Source: Dehalococcoidia bacterium (GTDB lineage: Bacteria; Chloroflexota; Dehalococcoidia; GIF9; AB-539-J10). Taken from it: a stretch of 55,886 nt of DNA. The notes below the pieces were generated by a model. The model saw nothing but the letters and a program-made list of their open reading frames with translations, made no database searches and was not told the origin of the DNA. Made by a program: the position numbers and the translations under genes. Shown here in pieces: positions 7,420 to 50,412 of the stretch (position 1 is its first letter; each line of letters begins with the position of its first letter). The DNA is taken from NCBI GenBank assembly GCA_003552125.1, contig PUON01000057.1, positions 1-55,886 of the forward strand, in the 5' to 3' direction.

Positions 7420-8988
7420 CTATAGAGTGATGTTAGAGTACTTCCGCGGCGGCCTTTCGGCACGCTTACGAGCGAGGGCGTCCAGTGCGCGGTTGATGTG
7501 GCTGCGTGTGGCCGCAGGCTGAATGATGTCGTCAACGTATCCCCGCTCGGCCGCTGGATATGGGCTTTCGTACATATCGGCGTACTCCTTGAGCTTACGC
7601 CTGCGTTCCTCTTCCGGATCCGCTGCGTTCCTGATCTCCTTGGCGAAGATGACGCTTGCGGCGGTCTCTGCCCCGACGATGGAGATACGCGCCGTCGGCC
7701 ACGCGAAGACGAAGTCGGCGCCTATAGACTTATCGAGCATGCCATAGTGGGCCCCCGCGTACGACTTCCGCAGGATGACCGAGATGAGAGGGACCGTGGC
7801 GTCAGCCCATGAGAACAGCAGTTTTGCCCCATGGCGCAAAATGCCGTTCCAGTCCTGCTGCGAACCAATCAGGTAGCCCGGACAATCCGTCAGTGATATC
7901 AGTGGTACATTGAAGAGGTCGCAGAACCGTATGAATCGGGCGATCTTGTCGCACGCGTTGATGTCCAGCACACCGGCACGGGCGGTGGGCTGGTTTGCTA
8001 CGAGGCCGACGGTCCTGCCGTTGAACCGGGCGAATCCGGTGATGGCATTGGTGGCGTAGTACGGCAGCATCTCGAAGTAGCGGCCATCGTCGACGATGGC
8101 GTGGATCACCTTCTTCATATCGTAGGCCCGCGTGGGGTGATCCGGGATCAGGTCGTCCAGCTCTGCTGCCTGCCTGTCCACGGGATCGTTGGTGGCCGTC
8201 CGTGGTACCTCGTCTGCGTTGTTCGACGGCAGGAAATCGAGCAGCTCCCTGCAGCGGTCGATACACTCCTCGTCCGAGTCGGCAACTATGTGTGTCTGAC
8301 CGGACTTGACGGCGTGGCTGTGCCAGCCGCAGAGGTCCTCGAGGCTGATTTCCTCACCCGTTTGTGTCTTGACGAAGGCAGGACCGGCGATTCCCATGAA
8401 ACCGGTGCTGCGGTTCTGGATCACGAAATCCATCATCACCGGGTGGTACGCCTGTCCGCCGAGGCACGGCCCCAGCAGGAGCGATATCTGCGGGATGATC
8501 CCGGATGCTTCTATCTGCTCCCGAAACGTCCAGCCGTAGGCCTCGAGCGTGTCCATGCCCTCATGCAGGCGCGCCCCGGCTGAATCGTTCATCGTCACAA
8601 ACGGCCAGCCGTTCTCTTTGGCGAACCGTATGGCGCGTGCCAGCTTGCGGCCGTGGTACTCGCCGAACGTGCCCATCATGGCAGTGAAATCCTCGGCGGC
8701 GGCAACGACCGTGCGTCCGTTCACAGGACCAAAACCTGTGATAATGCCCTCGGCCGGGATCTCGCGGGCATCCATGCCGAACGCGGTCGTGCGATGCTTG
8801 ACCCAAAGGCCGATCTCGGTAAACGCACCTTCATCGAACAGGTACCCGAGGCGCTCGCGTGCGGTCATCTGCCCCCTGGCGTGGCGTTCCTCGATTGCCT
8901 TCTCTCCTCCCATCTGGAGCAGGTGCTGACGTCGCGAACTCCACTCGTCCAGTCGTTGTCTGGTGCTCTTCTCTACCGGTTTGTCCAT
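7420..8988 (-). CDS. Acyl-CoA carboxylase/decarboxylase carboxyltransferase (beta) subunit
   Basis: HARGQMTARERL, DSAGARLHEG, GPCLGG, IARFIRFCDLFNVPLISLTDCPG, RKSYAGA. 522 aa, PccB/MmdA-like. Confidence 0.92.
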   Translation of the reverse strand: MDKPVEKSTRQRLDEWSSRRQHLLQMGGEKAIEERHARGQMTARERLGYLFDEGAFTEIGLWVKHRTTAFGMDAREIPAEGIITGFGPVNGRTVVAAAEDFTAMMGTFGEYHGRKLARAIRFAKENGWPFVTMNDSAGARLHEGMDTLEAYGWTFREQIEASGIIPQISLLLGPCLGGQAYHPVMMDFVIQNRSTGFMGIAGPAFVKTQTGEEISLEDLCGWHSHAVKSGQTHIVADSDEECIDRCRELLDFLPSNNADEVPRTATNDPVDRQAAELDDLIPDHPTRAYDMKKVIHAIVDDGRYFEMLPYYATNAITGFARFNGRTVGLVANQPTARAGVLDINACDKIARFIRFCDLFNVPLISLTDCPGYLIGSQQDWNGILRHGAKLLFSWADATVPLISVILRKSYAGAHYGMLDKSIGADFVFAWPTARISIVGAETAASVIFAKEIRNAADPEEERRRKLKEYADMYESPYPAAERGYVDDIIQPAATRSHINRALDALARKRAERPPRKYSNITL

Positions 8989-38218: not shown

Positions 38219-39150
38219 AGATTGCCATTGTTGGAGCCGCAGGAAAGCTGGGAAGCTGGTTCGCTACCTTGCTGCATCAGCATGGTCATGAACTCGTACT
38301 GGTGGGACGTCGACGGGAGCCTCTCGAATTGCTGGCTACACGTATGGATCGTTGCGTGGTGGGACAGCTCGAGGATTTGGCATCCACGGACCTCGTTATT
38401 GTATCGGTTCCCATGGATGTGGTGGAACGTGTCATCGCGGAACTTGGGCTTCATGTCCGTGAATCCCAACCCGTCATAGACCTCAGCTCGCTCAAGCGTG
38501 CGCCTCAGGGTGCGGCAGATGCTCACATGGCACATGCGTGCTTCCTCGGAGTTCATCCCATGTTCGGCTCAGGCGCAGAGAGTCTCTCGGGTCACAACGT
38601 GATCCTTGTCCCGGACAATCCAAGTGCCGAAGCGCTCGCTACCAAGGTGCGCGAGTACGTTGAACCCCTTGGCGCACATGTAGTCTCGATGGACGTTGAG
38701 ACACATGATGATCTGATGTCAGTGGTTCTCGGGTTGCCTGCACTGGTTGTAGCTGCGGTCGCACGTTCAGTGCTGGCTGGTGGCCGGTTCGGAATGGCAC
38801 GAGAGGTAAGCGGCACGTCGCTTGAAGTACTGGCTTCGCTGACAGAAAGCATGCTGTGCGAGGGGAGCGAGCTGTACGGCACGCTCCTGGCAGCATTGCC
38901 GTCCGCCTCTGAGGTCGCCGGCGCCCTGCAGGATAGTGCCGCCCATTTCGCCCGACTGGTTGAGACACGCGATCGAACTGCGCTGATCGAAGAGTTTTCT
39001 TCGCTCGGACGACAACTGGAGCAGGTCGATCACCGTGCGGGCGATGCCTATGCGCGCATGTACGCTATGCTGGAAGCCCTGAAGCGTTATCCGCCTACTC
39101 CAGCGTCCTCTTCAATGGAGGCAGGCCTGCTACCTCCCGCAGACTGTTGA
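38215..39150 (+). CDS. tyrA: Prephenate/arogenate dehydrogenase
   Basis: MKIAIVGAAGKLG, DLSSLK, GVHPMFG, HDDLMSVVLGLP; last gene of the aro operon. Confidence 0.9.
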   Translation: MKIAIVGAAGKLGSWFATLLHQHGHELVLVGRRREPLELLATRMDRCVVGQLEDLASTDLVIVSVPMDVVERVIAELGLHVRESQPVIDLSSLKRAPQGAADAHMAHACFLGVHPMFGSGAESLSGHNVILVPDNPSAEALATKVREYVEPLGAHVVSMDVETHDDLMSVVLGLPALVVAAVARSVLAGGRFGMAREVSGTSLEVLASLTESMLCEGSELYGTLLAALPSASEVAGALQDSAAHFARLVETRDRTALIEEFSSLGRQLEQVDHRAGDAYARMYAMLEALKRYPPTPASSSMEAGLLPPADC

Positions 39151-40279
39151 TCAGGTACACGAAGTTTTCAAACGGCACGTCCGGCGGCACGAAATGGTCG
39201 ACCGACGGGAAGTATCCTCCGGTTTCGAGAAGGTATGGCACCTTTGAGAGTACCTCATTCCGTATTGCACTCTTGTCTTTGAGCAGAGCACGCTTGTCGA
39301 TATTGCCACCCAGTATGACATCCTTTCCGTACTTCTTGCGCAATTCCACTGCGTCATTACCTGCGGCGCACTCGAGCGGCCAGAAGAAATTGATGCCGCT
39401 TTCAAGCCAAAGGGGAATGAGCTGATTCAAACCCCCGTCGCTGTCGACGAAGATGATATCGATACCCTTGGAACGCAGCATGTCTGTGATTACCCGATAA
39501 CGTGGCATCATGAACTGCCGAAACATCCTCGGGGATATCAATGGCCCTGACTTGAATGCCATGTCCTCCCAGAACATCGCTCCGTCGGCCCGTATATCCT
39601 GCAGTGCCCGGGTGAGGCAGGAAACCTCCATCTCGCATAGCGTGTCCATCATATCCTCGATGAGTCCCGGGTCGTCATGCAATGCGAACAGGAGCGGCTC
39701 CAGCCCCATCCATTCTCGTAGGAATCCGAAAAAGCTGCCGACATTCAGCAGCAGCGGTTCATCCTTAGCGTTCATCCGCTCAACGTAACTCTGCCAGTCT
39801 GCGGGGAACCGTGCCGGGTCGTTGGGGCTCAGCCTCTTCTTATACTCCTGCCACGTGGCACGGTCTTTCACCGGGTGGTCCAGGTACATCGGCATCTTCT
39901 GGGGGTCTCTCTTATCGATTCTCACCACCTGGCCACCTTCATTTACAAGAGTGATAGTGTGTTCGTCCTCCGAGAGTTTCCTGGTCTCGTAGGTCGGCAG
40001 TATAGGTGGTATGGCATATACGTAAGTTCTATCCAGGACCTGAAGTCGCTTGTCCATGAAGAGTCCGGTTTGAATCTCCCGGAGGACACGTATGTGATCA
40101 AATTCGAAGTAAGCGCGCAAGGAGCGTGAATCACGCAATTCAGCCGGAGCGCCACGATTGACCCAGACCTCCGGTGTTTCCATCCAGAAGTCATTCAACC
40201 ACGGGGCAAGAAGACAGAGATCGCCTGTTCGTTTGAATCTGCATATATCCAGGAACCGTTGTCTGGTGGACTCCGTCAT
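39095..40279 (-). CDS. Uroporphyrinogen decarboxylase-fold protein (MtaA/CmuA-like methyltransferase family)
   Basis: FFGFLREWMGLE, FWEDMAFKSGPLISP, VDSDG, PLECAAG, GNIDK, SVDHFVPPDVP. Confidence 0.85.
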   Translation of the reverse strand: MTESTRQRFLDICRFKRTGDLCLLAPWLNDFWMETPEVWVNRGAPAELRDSRSLRAYFEFDHIRVLREIQTGLFMDKRLQVLDRTYVYAIPPILPTYETRKLSEDEHTITLVNEGGQVVRIDKRDPQKMPMYLDHPVKDRATWQEYKKRLSPNDPARFPADWQSYVERMNAKDEPLLLNVGSFFGFLREWMGLEPLLFALHDDPGLIEDMMDTLCEMEVSCLTRALQDIRADGAMFWEDMAFKSGPLISPRMFRQFMMPRYRVITDMLRSKGIDIIFVDSDGGLNQLIPLWLESGINFFWPLECAAGNDAVELRKKYGKDVILGGNIDKRALLKDKSAIRNEVLSKVPYLLETGGYFPSVDHFVPPDVPFENFVYLINSLREVAGLPPLKRTLE

Positions 40280-40302
40280 CTGGTCTGCTCTCCCGTCTGT
40301 TC

Positions 40303-40941
40303 TTACCGCGCCGCCAGTTTCTCAGCCTCCTGCACTGCCGAGGCACAATCCTCGGCGAAGCCTTCGGCGCCTATCTGATCCGCGTATTCACGCGTAATTG
40401 GCGCGCCCCCTATCATCACCTTCACCCTATCTCTCAGGCCCGCTTTGTCAAGGGCATCGATTACCTCCGGCATGTTCGTCATCGAGATTGTCAACAGCGC
40501 GGACATGCCCAGTATGTCCGGGGAATGCTGTCTCACGGCATCAACGAATGTGGTCGCCGGCACGTCGACCCCAAGGTCCACGACCTCAAATCCACCACAC
40601 TCCAGCATTATGCGCACGATGTTCTTGCCTATATCGTGGAGATCCCCTTCAACCGTTCCAAGTACGATTCTTCCCTTTCTGTGAGTGTCGCCGGCGGCCA
40701 GGTGCGGTTTCAACTCCCCTACACCTCTGTCCATCGCCCTGCACGCTATGAGCACCTCGGGAAGAAAGACCTCACCATCCTTGAACAGATCTCCAAGGTG
40801 CTGGATGCCCGGCACGAGTGCCTCGTCAAGAATGCTCATTGCAGGGACTCCCTCTTGCAGAGCCTGCTTGACCAGTGCGACTGTCTGCTCGTCATCCCCG
40901 TTCTGCACCGAAGTGGCGAGTATTTCGGGATCCCATGCCAT
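40303..40941 (-). CDS. Methyltransferase corrinoid protein (MtbC/MttC-like)
   Basis: Cap domain GEVFLPEV, B12 motif DLHDIGKN, DLGVDVP, SALLT, IGGAP. ATG 40941 after AAGGAGGT. Confidence 0.94.
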   Translation of the reverse strand: MAWDPEILATSVQNGDDEQTVALVKQALQEGVPAMSILDEALVPGIQHLGDLFKDGEVFLPEVLIACRAMDRGVGELKPHLAAGDTHRKGRIVLGTVEGDLHDIGKNIVRIMLECGGFEVVDLGVDVPATTFVDAVRQHSPDILGMSALLTISMTNMPEVIDALDKAGLRDRVKVMIGGAPITREYADQIGAEGFAEDCASAVQEAEKLAAR

Positions 40942-40955
40942 GAGTTGACCTCCTT

Positions 40956-41041
40956 GTGTCGATGCTGTGGCCGTCTGTCGGGACTGGTGCACAGTGTCGA
41001 TTCAACACCTGAATCGCCATTGTATGACAGTGTCGATTGAA
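40956..41041. repeat. Direct repeats in the divergent corrinoid/thiolase promoter region
   Basis: ACAGTGTCGATTCAA (40991-41005) and ACAGTGTCGATTGAA (41027-41041), plus a core GTGTCGAT at 40956-40963. Confidence 0.75.
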
Positions 41042-46348: not shown

Positions 46349-46378
46349 ATTGTAGGCACCTCTCGACTTGACTGTCAA
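46349..46378 (-). promoter_or_regulatory. sigma70 promoter of pyrG-tal-rho
   Basis: TTGACA (46378-46373), 18 nt, TACAAT (46354-46349). Confidence 0.75.
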
Positions 46379-46468: not shown

Positions 46469-47353
46469 CTATGCGCTTAGCGAGGCACGCTCTGCGGCAA
46501 TCACGGTATGTGCCAGCAGCATCGTCACCGTCATAGGTCCGGCGCCTCCGGGTACTGGTGTAATTGCCTCTGCCTTCAGCTTCACAGCCTCGAAATCGAT
46601 ATCTCCAACCAAGCGGTATCCCTGCTTGGCTGTGGGGTCGTCAATGTAATTCGATCCGAAGTCGATGGCGATCACTCCATCCTTCACCATCTCCGCAGTA
46701 ATGAAACCGGCCTGGTTCACGGAGACCACGAGCAGGTCCGCCTGTCGGGTCATCCCAGCAATGTCGGGGGTATCTGGGTTGCACAGGGTGACGTTTGCAC
46801 CGACATCGTTGCGGGTCAGCAGGGCCGCCATCGGTTTGCCCACGAGGCTGTCCATGTTTACTATGACGGCGTGTTTCCGGCGCAAGTCGTCATGGCCGGT
46901 GCGCTTCAACATCTCCATTATCCCGGAAGGTGTGGCGGGTACAAACGACCGCTGTCCCAGCCACGAGCACCCCACGCTTTGCGGATGGAATCCGTCCACA
47001 TCCTTCTCAGGGGCCACTTCAGCCAGCACAAGCTCCTCATCGATGTGACCTGGAAGCGGAAGCTGCACAAAGACTCCGTGAACGTCTGTCCGTTGCACAA
47101 GGTCGCGCAATCGGCGAAGCAGGTGTTCCTGAGAACAGTCAGCCGGAAGATGTTGCATCTCGGCCCTCAAGCCAACTTCATTGCAGGCCTTCTCCTTGAG
47201 CCGCACGTAACTTGCGGATCCGGGATCGTCGCCGACAAGAACGCCTGCCAGCGTAGGGATGATACCCCGCGGCTCAAGCACCCTTATCCGTTCTGTCAGT
47301 TCCTGGCGAATTTCTGTTGAGAGCTTCCGGCCATCAAGTATCGTTCCAGGCAT
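46469..47353 (-). CDS. folD: FolD paralogue with atypical dinucleotide-binding motif
   Basis: SYVRLK, QLPLP, KDVDGFHP, GDIDF, TPVPGGAGPMTV. GRS motif replaced by NMD. Confidence 0.9.
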   Translation of the reverse strand: MPGTILDGRKLSTEIRQELTERIRVLEPRGIIPTLAGVLVGDDPGSASYVRLKEKACNEVGLRAEMQHLPADCSQEHLLRRLRDLVQRTDVHGVFVQLPLPGHIDEELVLAEVAPEKDVDGFHPQSVGCSWLGQRSFVPATPSGIMEMLKRTGHDDLRRKHAVIVNMDSLVGKPMAALLTRNDVGANVTLCNPDTPDIAGMTRQADLLVVSVNQAGFITAEMVKDGVIAIDFGSNYIDDPTAKQGYRLVGDIDFEAVKLKAEAITPVPGGAGPMTVTMLLAHTVIAAERASLSA

Positions 47354-47375
47354 GGTCCTTCTCCTTCACCATATG

Positions 47376-48251
47376 TTATTGAGAGGACAGCCTCTCAGCG
47401 GCGAGCACCGTGTTGCTGAGCAGTACTGCGGTGGTGACAGGTCCTGTGCCACCGGGAACCGGTGTGATGGCGCCAGCTACCTGTGACACCGGGTCGAAAT
47501 CGACATCGCCCACGAGCCGTGGCTTGTCGCTCTCGGGATCCAGTACCTGGTTCACCCCAACGTCAATTACCACGGCACCGCTGCGAATCATATCCGCAGT
47601 GATGGTCGCCGGGCGTCCCATCGCTGCGACCACAATATCGGCGGTCCTGGTGAACTGAGCCATGTCACGAGTTCCCGTGTGGCACACTGTGACCGTTGCA
47701 TTGGCCCCGGCCTGTTTCTGCATCAATATCCCGGCAAGCGGCTTGCCGACTATGTTGCTGCGACCACATATGACCACATGACGTCCCTCAGGACTGTGAC
47801 CACTGCGCACCAGCAGCTCCTTAACACCATGCGCGGTGGAGGGAAAGAAGGTGTCTTCTCCCAGAAGCAAGCGTCCGGCGCTCACAGGGTTCGTGCCGTC
47901 CACATCCTTCTCGGGCGCTATGGCGCTCTCCGCAGCGAGTGTGTCAAGGTGACGGGGAAGCGGGAGTTGCAGGATGATGCCATGGAACCGGTCGTCCTGA
48001 TTGAGGGAAGACAGCGTCTCCTCGAGTCGATCCTGCGTCACCTCCTCGGGCAGTCTGACCTCTTCGTGATGTATACCAACCGCTTCGCATCCGCGCGCGA
48101 TACCTCTCAGGTACGAGGCCGCAGCGGGGTCATCTCCCACCACGACTGCTGCAAGGCCGGGTTTCACTCCTCCGAGGTTGGCGATCCTGTCCTTCAGTTC
48201 TTCCCGAATCGAGGCTGCGATAGCGCGGCCATCAATTATTTCCGCAGGCAT
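47376..48251 (-). CDS. folD: Methylene-THF dehydrogenase/cyclohydrolase (canonical FolD)
   Basis: QLPLP, KDVDG, GRSNIVGKP, DVGVN, GDVDF, TPVPGGTGPVT. Confidence 0.94.
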   Translation of the reverse strand: MPAEIIDGRAIAASIREELKDRIANLGGVKPGLAAVVVGDDPAAASYLRGIARGCEAVGIHHEEVRLPEEVTQDRLEETLSSLNQDDRFHGIILQLPLPRHLDTLAAESAIAPEKDVDGTNPVSAGRLLLGEDTFFPSTAHGVKELLVRSGHSPEGRHVVICGRSNIVGKPLAGILMQKQAGANATVTVCHTGTRDMAQFTRTADIVVAAMGRPATITADMIRSGAVVIDVGVNQVLDPESDKPRLVGDVDFDPVSQVAGAITPVPGGTGPVTTAVLLSNTVLAAERLSSQ

Positions 48252-48441
48252 GGGTACCTCCTGTCTATGCGTCGGCCCATTCTACCACACGAGCCCTTGG
48301 ACAGCCGTGGCGACTCAGTTGCAGAAATTGCATAATCGAGAAACGCGTGTTACAGTCAGAGATCGGACTAGATCGGCACATCTCGTGCTTCCTGATGTAT
48401 CTGATTTTGCTTCCAAATACATATTTTCGGAGGACTGACGT

Positions 48442-50412
48442 ATGGCTGCTGACAAAGGGATGATGTCCATGATGGACGAGAAGAGGCTTTTTCCGCCTCC
48501 CAAGGAGTTCAGCGAAAGAGCGCACATCAAGAGCTTTGAGGAGTACCAGAAGATCTATGAACAGTCTCTGGCTGACAATGAGGGATTCTGGGCCGAGCGT
48601 GCCGAACAGATCGATTGGTTCAAGAAATGGGACAAGGTACTCGTAACGGATTTCGCCAACGCCAAGCACGAGTGGTTCGTAGGCGGCAAACTGAATGTGA
48701 CGTACAACTGCATCGATCGGCATCTCACGACCTGGCGAAAGAACAAGGCCGCGCTTATCTGGGAAGGTGAGCCGCTTAACGAGAGCAAGACGTACACCTA
48801 CCAGGAACTCTATTACGAGGTGTGTCGCTTTGCGAACGTACTCAAGAAGAACGGCGTGAAGAAGGGTGACCGAGTTACCCTTTACCTCCCGATGATTCCT
48901 GAACTGGCGATTGCGCTCCTGGCTTGTGCCCGGATCGGCGCGATCCACAGCGTTGTGTTTGGAGGCTTCAGTGCTGAGGCCCTTCGTGATCGGATTCAGG
49001 ACTGCGATTCTGAGACGGTCATCTGCTGCGACGGCTACTACCGCAGTGGCAAGATCGTAGGCAGCAAGGCGAACGCCGACGTGGCCATGGACCAGTGTCC
49101 CGGTGTCAAGCGTGCGTTCGTCGTGAAGCGGGCCGGTGTCGAGGTTCCCATGGTTGAGGGCCGCGACCGCTGGTGGCACGATGAAATGTCTGCTCCCGAT
49201 ATCACCGCTGAATGTGAGCCCGAGTGGATGGATGCAGAGGACCCACTGTTCATTCTCTACACGAGTGGCAGCACCGGCAAGCCCAAGGGCGTGCTGCACA
49301 CCACGGCGGGTTACCTCGTCTACGTAACGCAGACGTTCAAGTGGGTGTTCGACTATCGTGATGAAGATACGTATTGGTGCACCGCTGATATCGGTTGGGT
49401 CACCGGTCACAGCTACATTGTGTACGGACCGCTTTGCTCCGGTGCGACCAGCCTCATGTTCGAGGGCGTGCCTACCTTCCCGAAGCCGGATCGTTTCTGG
49501 CAGATAGTTGAGAAGTACGATGTCAACATCTTCTACACGGCCCCGACCGCGCTGCGTGCCCTGATGCGTGAGGGTGATGAGTGGGTCAACAATCGTGATC
49601 TCTCGTCCCTGCGGTTGTTGGGTTCGGTTGGTGAGCCCATTAATCCTGAGGCCTGGATGTGGTACTACACCGTTATCGGCAAGTCACGATGTCCTATTGT
49701 CGACACCTGGTGGCAGACCGAGACGGGCGGCATCCTCATTACTCCACTGCCCGGCGCGATGTCGCTGAAACCAGGTTCTGCCTCGTTCCCGTTCCCTGGA
49801 GTCGAACTGGCGATTCTGCGTGAGGATGGCAGCGAGGTTGAGACGAATGAGGGTGGATACCTTGTGATCAAGCGTCCATGGCCTGGCCTGATGCGCACAG
49901 TCTACGGCGATCCCAACCGGTTCAAAGAGACCTACTTCGTTCAGTTCCCCGGCGTGTACACAACGGGTGATGGGGCCCGCCGCGATGACGATGGCTTCTA
50001 CTGGCTGATGGGCCGGATCGATGACGTCATCAACGTGTCCGGTCATCGCATCGGGTCTGCCGAAGTTGAGAGCGCCCTGGTCTCTCATCCGAAGGTTGCT
50101 GAGGCCGCCGTGGTCGGCATGCCCCACGAGATTAAGGGGCAGGGCATCTATGCGTACGTGACCCTGAACGCGGGTGAGGAGAAGTCCGACGAGCTGAAGA
50201 AGGAACTTGTGACCCATGTACGCAAGGAAATCGGTCCCATCGCGGCTCCGGATGTTATTCAGTTCGCTGACGGGTTGCCGAAGACCCGCAGCGGCAAGAT
50301 CATGCGTCGGGTACTGGTGAAGATCGCTGCCGGCGACATCAAGGAGCTTGGCGACACGAGCACCCTTGCCGACCCGTCCGTTGTAGATGATCTCGTGCAG
50401 GGCAGGAAATAG
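48442..50412 (+). CDS. acs: Acetate--CoA ligase (AMP-forming)
   Basis: [58 protein letters not shown]. Confidence 0.96.

Follow-up and report, generated by a model that had tools for sequence, protein, structure and literature searches.

Organization of the two-gene locus

The window analyzed here, i.e., the whole stretch of 55,886 nucleotides of Dehalococcoidia DNA, carries two adjacent genes coding for FolD paralogues, one of which deviates from canonical FolD at the NADP-binding site. This raises the question of how the two FolD reactions, the oxidation of methylene-tetrahydrofolate (methylene-THF) and the hydrolysis of methenyl-THF, are distributed between the two gene products. A sequence-only reading had placed the paralogues at 46469–47353 and 47376–48251 with no strand given; open reading frames were confirmed at both places on the minus strand. 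The locus comprises the following features:

48442–50412, plus strand: acs, divergent from the folD pair
48252–48290, minus strand: 5' leader of the two-gene unit, sequence read
47376–48251, minus strand: P0002, upstream FolD paralogue ("Ile type"), 291 amino acids
47354–47375, minus strand: intercistronic spacer of 22 nt, sequence read
46469–47353, minus strand: P0001, downstream FolD paralogue ("Asp type"), 294 amino acids

The spacer contains a Shine-Dalgarno-like AAGGAG (47366–47361) located 7 nt 5' of the P0001 start codon (ATG), and a terminator scan of the spacer found no terminator between P0002 and P0001. In the leader of P0002, AGGAGG (48262–48257) lies ahead of the ATG and is preceded by an extended -10-like sequence, TGGTAGAAT (48287–48279), which was called as a promoter by eye only and was not listed by a consensus promoter scan. 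The next gene after the folD pair, pyrG, has its own TTGACA-18-TACAAT. A single contig of 206 nt from an alkali-sediment metatranscriptome matched a region inside the Asp copy (46589–46792) with 1 mismatch, which does not prove transcription, as the library may contain DNA. According to the run metadata, the sequence occurs in salt-lake and soda-lake metagenomes.

The two proteins are 45% identical, and each gave full-length matches to PF00763 and PF02882 above the gathering scores (126 and 166 bits for P0001, 123 and 200 bits for P0002, at cut-offs of 32.8 and 27, respectively). Neither paralogue reached the cut-off of any NCBIfam FolD model. The best scores were 316.8 (P0001) and 322.4 (P0002) versus 421, and the nearest approach was to NF010783, the model with the lowest cut-off (268 and 292, respectively, versus 333).

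Active-site residues of the two paralogues

The NADP-site motifs of P0002 are intact (GRSNIVGKP, CHTGT, A-M-G-R-P, and DVGVN). The sequence-only reading had regarded this copy as canonical, which holds for GRSNIVGKP and CHTGT; the fourth motif had been given as DVGIN and reads DVGVN, and in the Y-x3-K motif (S-Y-L-R-G-I-A-R) Ile51 replaces the catalytic Lys. This Lys of bifunctional FolDs, K56 in the human and K54 in the Escherichia coli enzyme, is absent from P0002 and present in P0001 (K53). Human K56 mutants are reported to be devoid of cyclohydrolase activity and to keep the dehydrogenase activity (Schmidt et al. 2000). The catalytic residues of the human enzyme are Y52, K56, Q100, and D125 (PMC3368264), and dehydrogenase activity was retained in a K56E mutant (PMC9173628). 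Because Ile replaces the Lys that is needed for cyclohydrolase chemistry, P0002 is predicted to be an NADP-dependent 5,10-methylene-THF dehydrogenase without cyclohydrolase activity. It could be a poor dehydrogenase, given that Lys56 has also been assigned a role in hydride transfer (PMC3368264).

Ile51 was invariant in all 21 of the 21 P0002 orthologues, as was the GRSNIVGKP block, and all four dinucleotide-site motifs are invariant in the clade of Ile-type proteins. The signature changes of this clade (L48, I51, G54, L94, T120, N121, S138, T269, and V272) are situated around the folate/Lys pocket and not at the dimer interface, with T120-N121 coming directly after D-V-D-G. In one genome (G214), the Ile copy has additionally lost the equivalent of Gln100 (Y-I-L-D). 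Eight other FolD representatives (P0139, P0193, P0197, P0207, P0229, P0233, P0257, and P0267) are Lys-less as well.

In P0001, all motifs named by the sequence-only reading were found, namely NMDSLVGKP, CNPDT, and DFGSN together with the conserved Y-x3-K, QLP, and KDVDG. The complete folate and catalytic set is kept (Y49-x3-K53, Q97-L-P, K-D-V-D120-G, and PGGxGP), and the dinucleotide site carries the substitutions G to N166, R to M167, S to D168, H-S to N192-P193, G to N213, and V to F232. With N213, the second of the invariant cofactor-site glycines is gone as well, a loss not noted in the sequence-only reading, and A-x-G-[RK]-P reads S-V-N213-Q-A. The dinucleotide site of bifunctional FolDs was accordingly recognized in P0002 and not in P0001. 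An NAD site of the MTHFD2 type, in which G-R-S is kept and Arg residues bind a phosphate that stands in for the 2'-phosphate (PMC9173628), was not found in P0001 either, the Arg position being occupied by Met, Val, or Thr and the Ser position by Asp. P0001 is not a member of the FTCD_C family (PF04961). The activity predicted for it is that of a 5,10-methenyl-THF cyclohydrolase, with no dehydrogenase function.

Among 5.8 billion proteins searched, at least 120 clusters had 60–87% identity to the Asp copy, and all Asp-type clusters that were readable contained [N/S/G]-x-D-[NS]-L-V-G-K-P and D-F-G-[SAT]-N. Among 135 members of the Asp clade, D168, F95, W131, F232, K53, and Q97 were 100% conserved, as was position 213 as N or D; Y49 and D120 were conserved in 99% and N166 in 88%, and L98, G269, and G272 were also invariant or nearly so. 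Within the best 150 representatives from a library clustered at 50% identity, which served as outgroup, the Asp-type motif was present in one (P0122), the others had mainly G-R-S and in a few cases variants of the G-A-S or N-R-S type, and no other variant clades were revealed. Searching genome contigs with P0001 yielded, among the matches listed, canonical FolDs of 41–50% identity and no close relatives. The matches listed in that search hint at the Dehalococcoidia.

The invariance or near-invariance of D168, N213, and F232 could mean that the former cofactor site is a rebuilt ligand site and not an empty one. A new folate-related function of the Asp copy, for example binding or conversion of 5-formyl-THF or folate sensing, with the Ile copy performing whatever FolD activity is needed, would agree with the invariant new residues L52, F95, W131, and F232 that line the cleft and with the failure of both copies to reach the NCBIfam cut-offs. 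This explanation is very doubtful: it has no positive evidence, the cyclohydrolase catalytic set is intact, and complementation is the simplest explanation for its strict association with a partner lacking the Lys (see below).

Covariation of the two copies across the Dehalococcoidia

Every FolD encoded in a sample of related genomes was read, which yielded 24 complete pairs from 23 genomes in six families of the class. They were distributed as follows:

16 pairs: the genus of the window and neighboring genera
2 pairs: genus g31
1 pair: genome G044, unlinked
5 pairs: four other families of the class

All linked pairs are arranged head to tail in the order Ile copy, then Asp copy, and two further genomes contain an Ile copy followed by the beginning of an Asp copy at the contig end. 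The upstream copy had Y-I-(Q/L)-D combined with G-R-S, G213, and V232 in 24 of 24 pairs, and the downstream copy had Y-K-Q-D combined with [N/G/S]-x-D, replacement of Gly213 by Asn or Asp, and replacement of Val232 by Phe or Ala, again in 24 of 24. All 22 single FolDs of the same order, which came from sister families, from genera of the window's family that have a single copy, and from one congeneric species (G004), showed Y-K-Q-D together with G-R-S, G, and V. No intermediate pair with one fully bifunctional member was present among the 24 complete pairs. This covariation is perfect, but as kin are non-independent it represents one origin (or few) plus transfers and not 46 independent trials. 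The same substitutions recur in the 135 clade members and in every pair examined far more consistently than chance would produce.

Two genomes appear to deviate from strict pairing. In G007 the Ile copy apparently has several frameshifts and deletions and in G141 one frameshift, with an intact Asp copy in both cases; the two genomes are metagenome-assembled with 5–9% contamination. If the disruptions are real, the Asp copy would be useful in these genomes without its partner.

Selection and constraint at the cofactor site

Pairwise dN/dS values (Nei-Gojobori, NG86) from 16 genomes were approximately 0.05–0.17 for both copies, at saturated dS, and dN of the Asp copy was 1.3 times that of the Ile copy. 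Purifying selection thus acts on both copies. The view that either gene is just a decaying, inconsequential duplicate, an outcome which the sequence-only reading had envisaged for the NMD variant if this proved to be non-conserved, has the altered motifs and nothing else in its favor and is almost certainly wrong. It was rejected on the basis of these dN/dS values, the occurrence of the same motifs in at least 120 clusters, and the intact reading frames in the 24 pairs.

Constraint on the cofactor site was scored in 18 paired genomes at 15 positions, which comprise the two loop glycines and the equivalents of the 13 residues contacting NADP in the human enzyme (T148, R173, S174, I176, H196, S197, A215, T216, Q218, M221, C236, G237, and I238; PMC3368264). 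In the Ile copy, the mean entropy at these positions was 0.27 and 11 of the 15 were invariant. The corresponding value for the Asp copy was 0.77, versus a mean of 0.94 over its whole length, and the positions of its 2'-phosphate triad were variable (V/T/A/M; H/D/N/S; mostly P). Seven folate and catalytic positions were invariant in both copies of the 18 paired genomes, with the exception of the K-to-I replacement. The NADP-site entropies and the signature changes of the Ile clade together indicate that it is the cofactor site that has been relaxed in the Asp copy and the pocket of the catalytic base that has been remodeled in the Ile copy.

The sequence-only reading had left a choice between an NAD-specific and a cyclohydrolase-only Asp copy. 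The latter is favored, because the replaced glycines, Arg, and Ser and the variable triad are unlike a re-tuned NAD site. Continued dehydrogenase/cyclohydrolase activity of the Asp copy, with NAD(H) or a different redox cofactor bound in a rebuilt pocket and an NADP-linked dehydrogenase added by the Ile copy, is unlikely. Loss of the Arg and the His-Ser of the 2'-phosphate triad is what a preference for NAD needs, D168, N213, and F232, all newly fixed, show strong conservation, and G007 and G141 seemingly keep only the Asp copy intact. However, both glycines of the dinucleotide loops have become residues with side chains, the cofactor-contacting Ser has become an invariant Asp, and the end of beta-B carries no conserved acidic residue (D52/S44 at position 194). 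Moreover, most cofactor-contact positions drift inside the Asp clade, and G-R-S is kept in every one of 96 or more canonical representatives, among them the NAD-using MTHFD2, whose structure is solved.

Phylogeny and distribution

In a tree of 85 sequences, the Ile type formed one clade (SH-aLRT 99) with a stem of 0.14. The NMD variant, for which the sequence-only reading had proposed a phylogenetic check, proved to be one conserved clade as well (Asp type, SH-aLRT 100), with a longer stem of 0.34. Both clades were nested in a poorly resolved group together with the single FolDs of the order, and the branching order within one mirrors that within the other. Constraining the two clades to be sisters raised the likelihood by 5.6 units relative to a quick unconstrained search (p-AU 0.62). 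The hypothesis that scores best is therefore one duplication, with the reservation that two accelerated lineages may attract each other.

Asp-type matches were obtained in approximately 45 of 201 genomes of the order, all of them in a single family (f1). In 401 genomes of the class, a profile HMM of the Asp clade separated Asp-type proteins (at least 466 bits) from everything else (at most 394 bits) and detected them in 9 genomes, which belong to five families. Paired and single states are mixed within two genera (g1 and g23). This mixture and the patchy distribution suggest that the two-gene unit has been transferred or replaced.

These results are probably explained by reciprocal subfunctionalization into a predicted dehydrogenase-only Ile copy and a predicted cyclohydrolase-only Asp copy. 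According to this scenario, some ancestral member of the Dehalococcoidia would have acquired a tandem duplication of a bifunctional FolD, and the duplicates would then have lost complementary halves of the FolD function. The Ile copy would catalyze only the interconversion of methylene-THF plus NADP+ and methenyl-THF plus NADPH, and the Asp copy, devoid of a dinucleotide site, only that of methenyl-THF plus water and 10-formyl-THF. The putatively co-transcribed pair would replace one FolD between a methylene-THF supply of the MetF/SHMT type and Fhs.

Predicted structures and dimer formation

The AlphaFold2 model of P0001, computed from an alignment of 46 sequences, had a pLDDT of 92.8 and a pTM of 0.89. 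Foldseek superimposed it on FolD structures with TM-scores of 0.92–0.96 and an rmsd of 1.4 Å to 3p2o. The model matches the FolD fold, and the Rossmann-like domain has thus been retained in a structural role, walling the cleft.

A P0001–P0002 heterodimer was predicted with an ipSAE of 0.80 (0.79–0.81 across runs; best control 0.00), a mark that 58 of 80 solved complexes attain, compared with 2 of 110 mismatched pairs. As FolD homodimers have been solved, this score is possibly driven by the predictor's memory; it speaks for compatibility of the canonical dimer interface with a heterodimer, not for formation of the complex, and is given no weight as evidence. Contacts agreed by at least 91% across runs and the pLDDT of the partners was at least 88. 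The predicted interface consists of helix 122–132, helix 170–180, and strand 186–191, as in canonical FolD (compare PMC3338484). Clade-specific residues were not enriched at this interface (2 of 10 and 1 of 14, versus approximately 10% expected).

Since FolD enzymes are obligate dimers (PMC3338484) and the two genes are co-inherited and putatively co-transcribed, the Asp copy might be a silent pseudoenzyme that heterodimerizes with the Ile copy to stabilize or regulate it, hydrolysis being spontaneous or catalyzed by another enzyme. We consider this quite improbable. A silent scaffold needs none of the conserved residues Y49, K53, Q97, L98, D120, G269, and G272, and the clade-specific residues are not enriched at the predicted interface. 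For the preferred subfunctionalization, a further step can be suggested only tentatively and at low probability, namely that the two proteins associate as an obligate heterodimer in which one site is a dehydrogenase and the other a cyclohydrolase, and D168, N213, F232, and W131 would serve as a nicotinamide-mimicking wall of the folate pocket or as a new site for a regulatory ligand.

Metabolic context

The genome (2.09 Mb, 94% complete) encodes P0001 and P0002 as its only FolD homologues, together with one Fhs, a weak match to MTHFR, and a methyltransferase of the MttB family. Across this 94%-complete genome, no match to the FTCD_C/FchA-type cyclohydrolases (PF04961) was obtained, and neither was CdhC/AcsB (acetyl-CoA synthase) found. 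A corrinoid protein nearest to the glycine-betaine and dimethylamine types and a methyltransferase of the URO-D family are encoded 6 kb from the pair. A role in biosynthesis and in oxidizing or redistributing C1 units derived from methyl groups is therefore more plausible for the pair than one in the methyl branch of the Wood-Ljungdahl pathway. The earlier proposal that two cofactor variants let this branch run oxidatively and reductively with different electron pools is not supported, as no CdhC/AcsB was found in the 94%-complete genome and the partner copy lacks the catalytic Lys of a normal bifunctional FolD.

Comparison with known systems

Canonical bifunctional FolD and MTHFD dehydrogenase/cyclohydrolases (E. 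coli 1B0A, Campylobacter jejuni 3P2O, and human DC301 1A4I/1DIB) share the Pfam domains, length, and fold of the two paralogues. They differ from P0002 by the catalytic Lys that this copy lacks, and from P0001 by G-R-S, the glycine of A-x-G-x-P, and the His-Ser of the 2'-phosphate site.

Yeast MTD1 has Thr at the position equivalent to Lys56 and has lost the equivalent of Gln100. P0002 is similar in that dehydrogenase activity is predicted to be kept and cyclohydrolase activity to be absent, with the Lys56 equivalent replaced, and the Ile copy of G214 resembles MTD1 also in the loss of the Gln100 equivalent. MTD1 is a FolD-family methylene-THF dehydrogenase that is monofunctional and NAD-dependent (Monzingo 2000 and Wagner 2005, cited in PMC11064299). 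In contrast, the Arg/His-Thr triad of the NADP type is preserved in P0002, as is the Gln in the present genome; P0002 is furthermore of independent bacterial origin and has a FolD-derived predicted cyclohydrolase as partner.

In acetogens and methylotrophs that combine a dehydrogenase with FchA (FTCD_C), redox reaction and ring hydrolysis reside on separate proteins, as predicted for the folD pair; an example of such a separate dehydrogenase is the monofunctional NADP enzyme of Peptostreptococcus productus (mentioned in PMC6443876). Unlike in the FchA systems, however, the predicted cyclohydrolase here is not an FTCD_C protein but a paralogue of FolD whose Rossmann site is disabled. Another FolD homologue that has lost cofactor use is the N-terminal dehydrogenase/cyclohydrolase-like domain of MTHFD1L from vertebrate mitochondria (PMC6443876, PMC11064299). 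In that case both activities are lost and the relic is fused to a synthetase, whereas P0001 is free-standing and has kept all catalytic residues of the folate site. Dehydrogenases of the MTD1 type, pairs of dehydrogenase and FchA in acetogens, and the inactive MTHFD1L domain are thus already known. A FolD paralogue specialized as cyclohydrolase and accompanied by a Lys-less FolD partner was not found described in the searchable literature.

Implications

FolD is the textbook case of one active site shared by two reactions, which in these organisms would be parted between two proteins of the same fold, each having lost one class of residues. The pair would represent an unusually clean example of duplication, degeneration, and complementation within a single catalytic pocket, and the Asp copy would supply a natural cyclohydrolase-only FolD scaffold on which the contributions of Lys56 and the cofactor to cyclohydrolysis could be dissected. 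If the two proteins do form an obligate heterodimer, the organism could control each step independently and thereby set the direction of C1 flux, and the complex would amount to a natural "un-fusion" in which one shared active site has become two coupled ones. The source names seen for members of the Asp clade contain the term "bifunctional," which under the predicted division of labor is an annotation error, so that metabolic models counting either gene by itself as a complete FolD would be wrong. Likewise, the interpretation as a Wood-Ljungdahl branch with two electron pools should not be propagated for this pair.

Paired and single FolD genes among the relatives

The pair in the window, an upstream Ile-type copy (P0002) and a downstream Asp-type copy (P0001), is not uniformly present even among close relatives. 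One species within the window's own genus (genome G004) carries in its place a single, fully canonical FolD (locus L131, G004:C43:4360-5259), with the catalytic Tyr, Lys, Gln and Asp (Y-K-Q-D) and the NADP-site motif G-R-S. A second genus, g23, is also mixed, containing both pair and single-FolD states. The mixed states in these two genera suggest that the two-gene unit has been replaced or transferred, in either direction. Just 3' of the single FolD in genome G022, a stretch of 47 residues (G022:C3:5060-5200, minus strand) has 62% identity to the C-terminus of P0001; this stretch, beside the canonical single gene, is possibly what remains of another FolD copy.

In two further genomes the Ile-type copy is broken and the neighbouring Asp-type copy intact. 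The Ile-type copy has several frameshifts and deletions in G007 (L087, G007:C125, about 7600-8500), where no further FolD was found besides this locus, and one frameshift in G141 (L117, G141:C13). Either these are errors of the metagenome-assembled genomes, or the lineages retain the Asp copy alone.

FolD proteins lacking the catalytic Lys

Outside the pair clades, the catalytic Lys is replaced (by I, L, N, A or Q) and G-R-S kept in eight unrelated FolD representatives (P0139, P0193, P0197, P0207, P0229, P0233, P0257 and P0267). In a pair from another family (L132, G214:C15, locus 811-1713), the Ile copy also lacks the Gln100 equivalent (Y-I-L-D). Yeast MTD1 has neither Lys56 nor Gln100, and the G214 copy, likewise without both equivalents, parallels it.

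Genomic surroundings, transcription and C1 supply

The following features were located around the pair and elsewhere in the same genome:

48265-49410, minus strand, 381-amino-acid ORF, antisense over nearly its whole length to the gene for acetyl-CoA synthetase on the plus strand (48442-50412)
46349-46378, minus strand, near-consensus sigma-70-like site (TTGACA-18-TACAAT, 11/12) between the Asp-type folD and pyrG
39095-40992, minus strand, B12-binding corrinoid protein and adjoining URO-D-family methyltransferase
G000:C152:5099-6490, MttB-family methyltransferase, away from the corrinoid/URO-D pair

The 381-amino-acid ORF had no Pfam match and is probably not a gene. Given the position of the predicted sigma-70-like site, after the Asp-type folD and ahead of pyrG, the latter probably has its own promoter. 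A single 206-nt contig from an alkali-sediment metatranscriptome (run X8), matching inside the Asp-type gene (46589-46792) with one mismatch, faintly hints at its transcription.

The top NCBIfam matches of the corrinoid protein were glycine-betaine MtgC and dimethylamine MtbC, both under the cut-off. Together with the URO-D-family and MttB-family methyltransferases, this protein suggests that demethylation of a methylated amine feeds the folate C1 pool.
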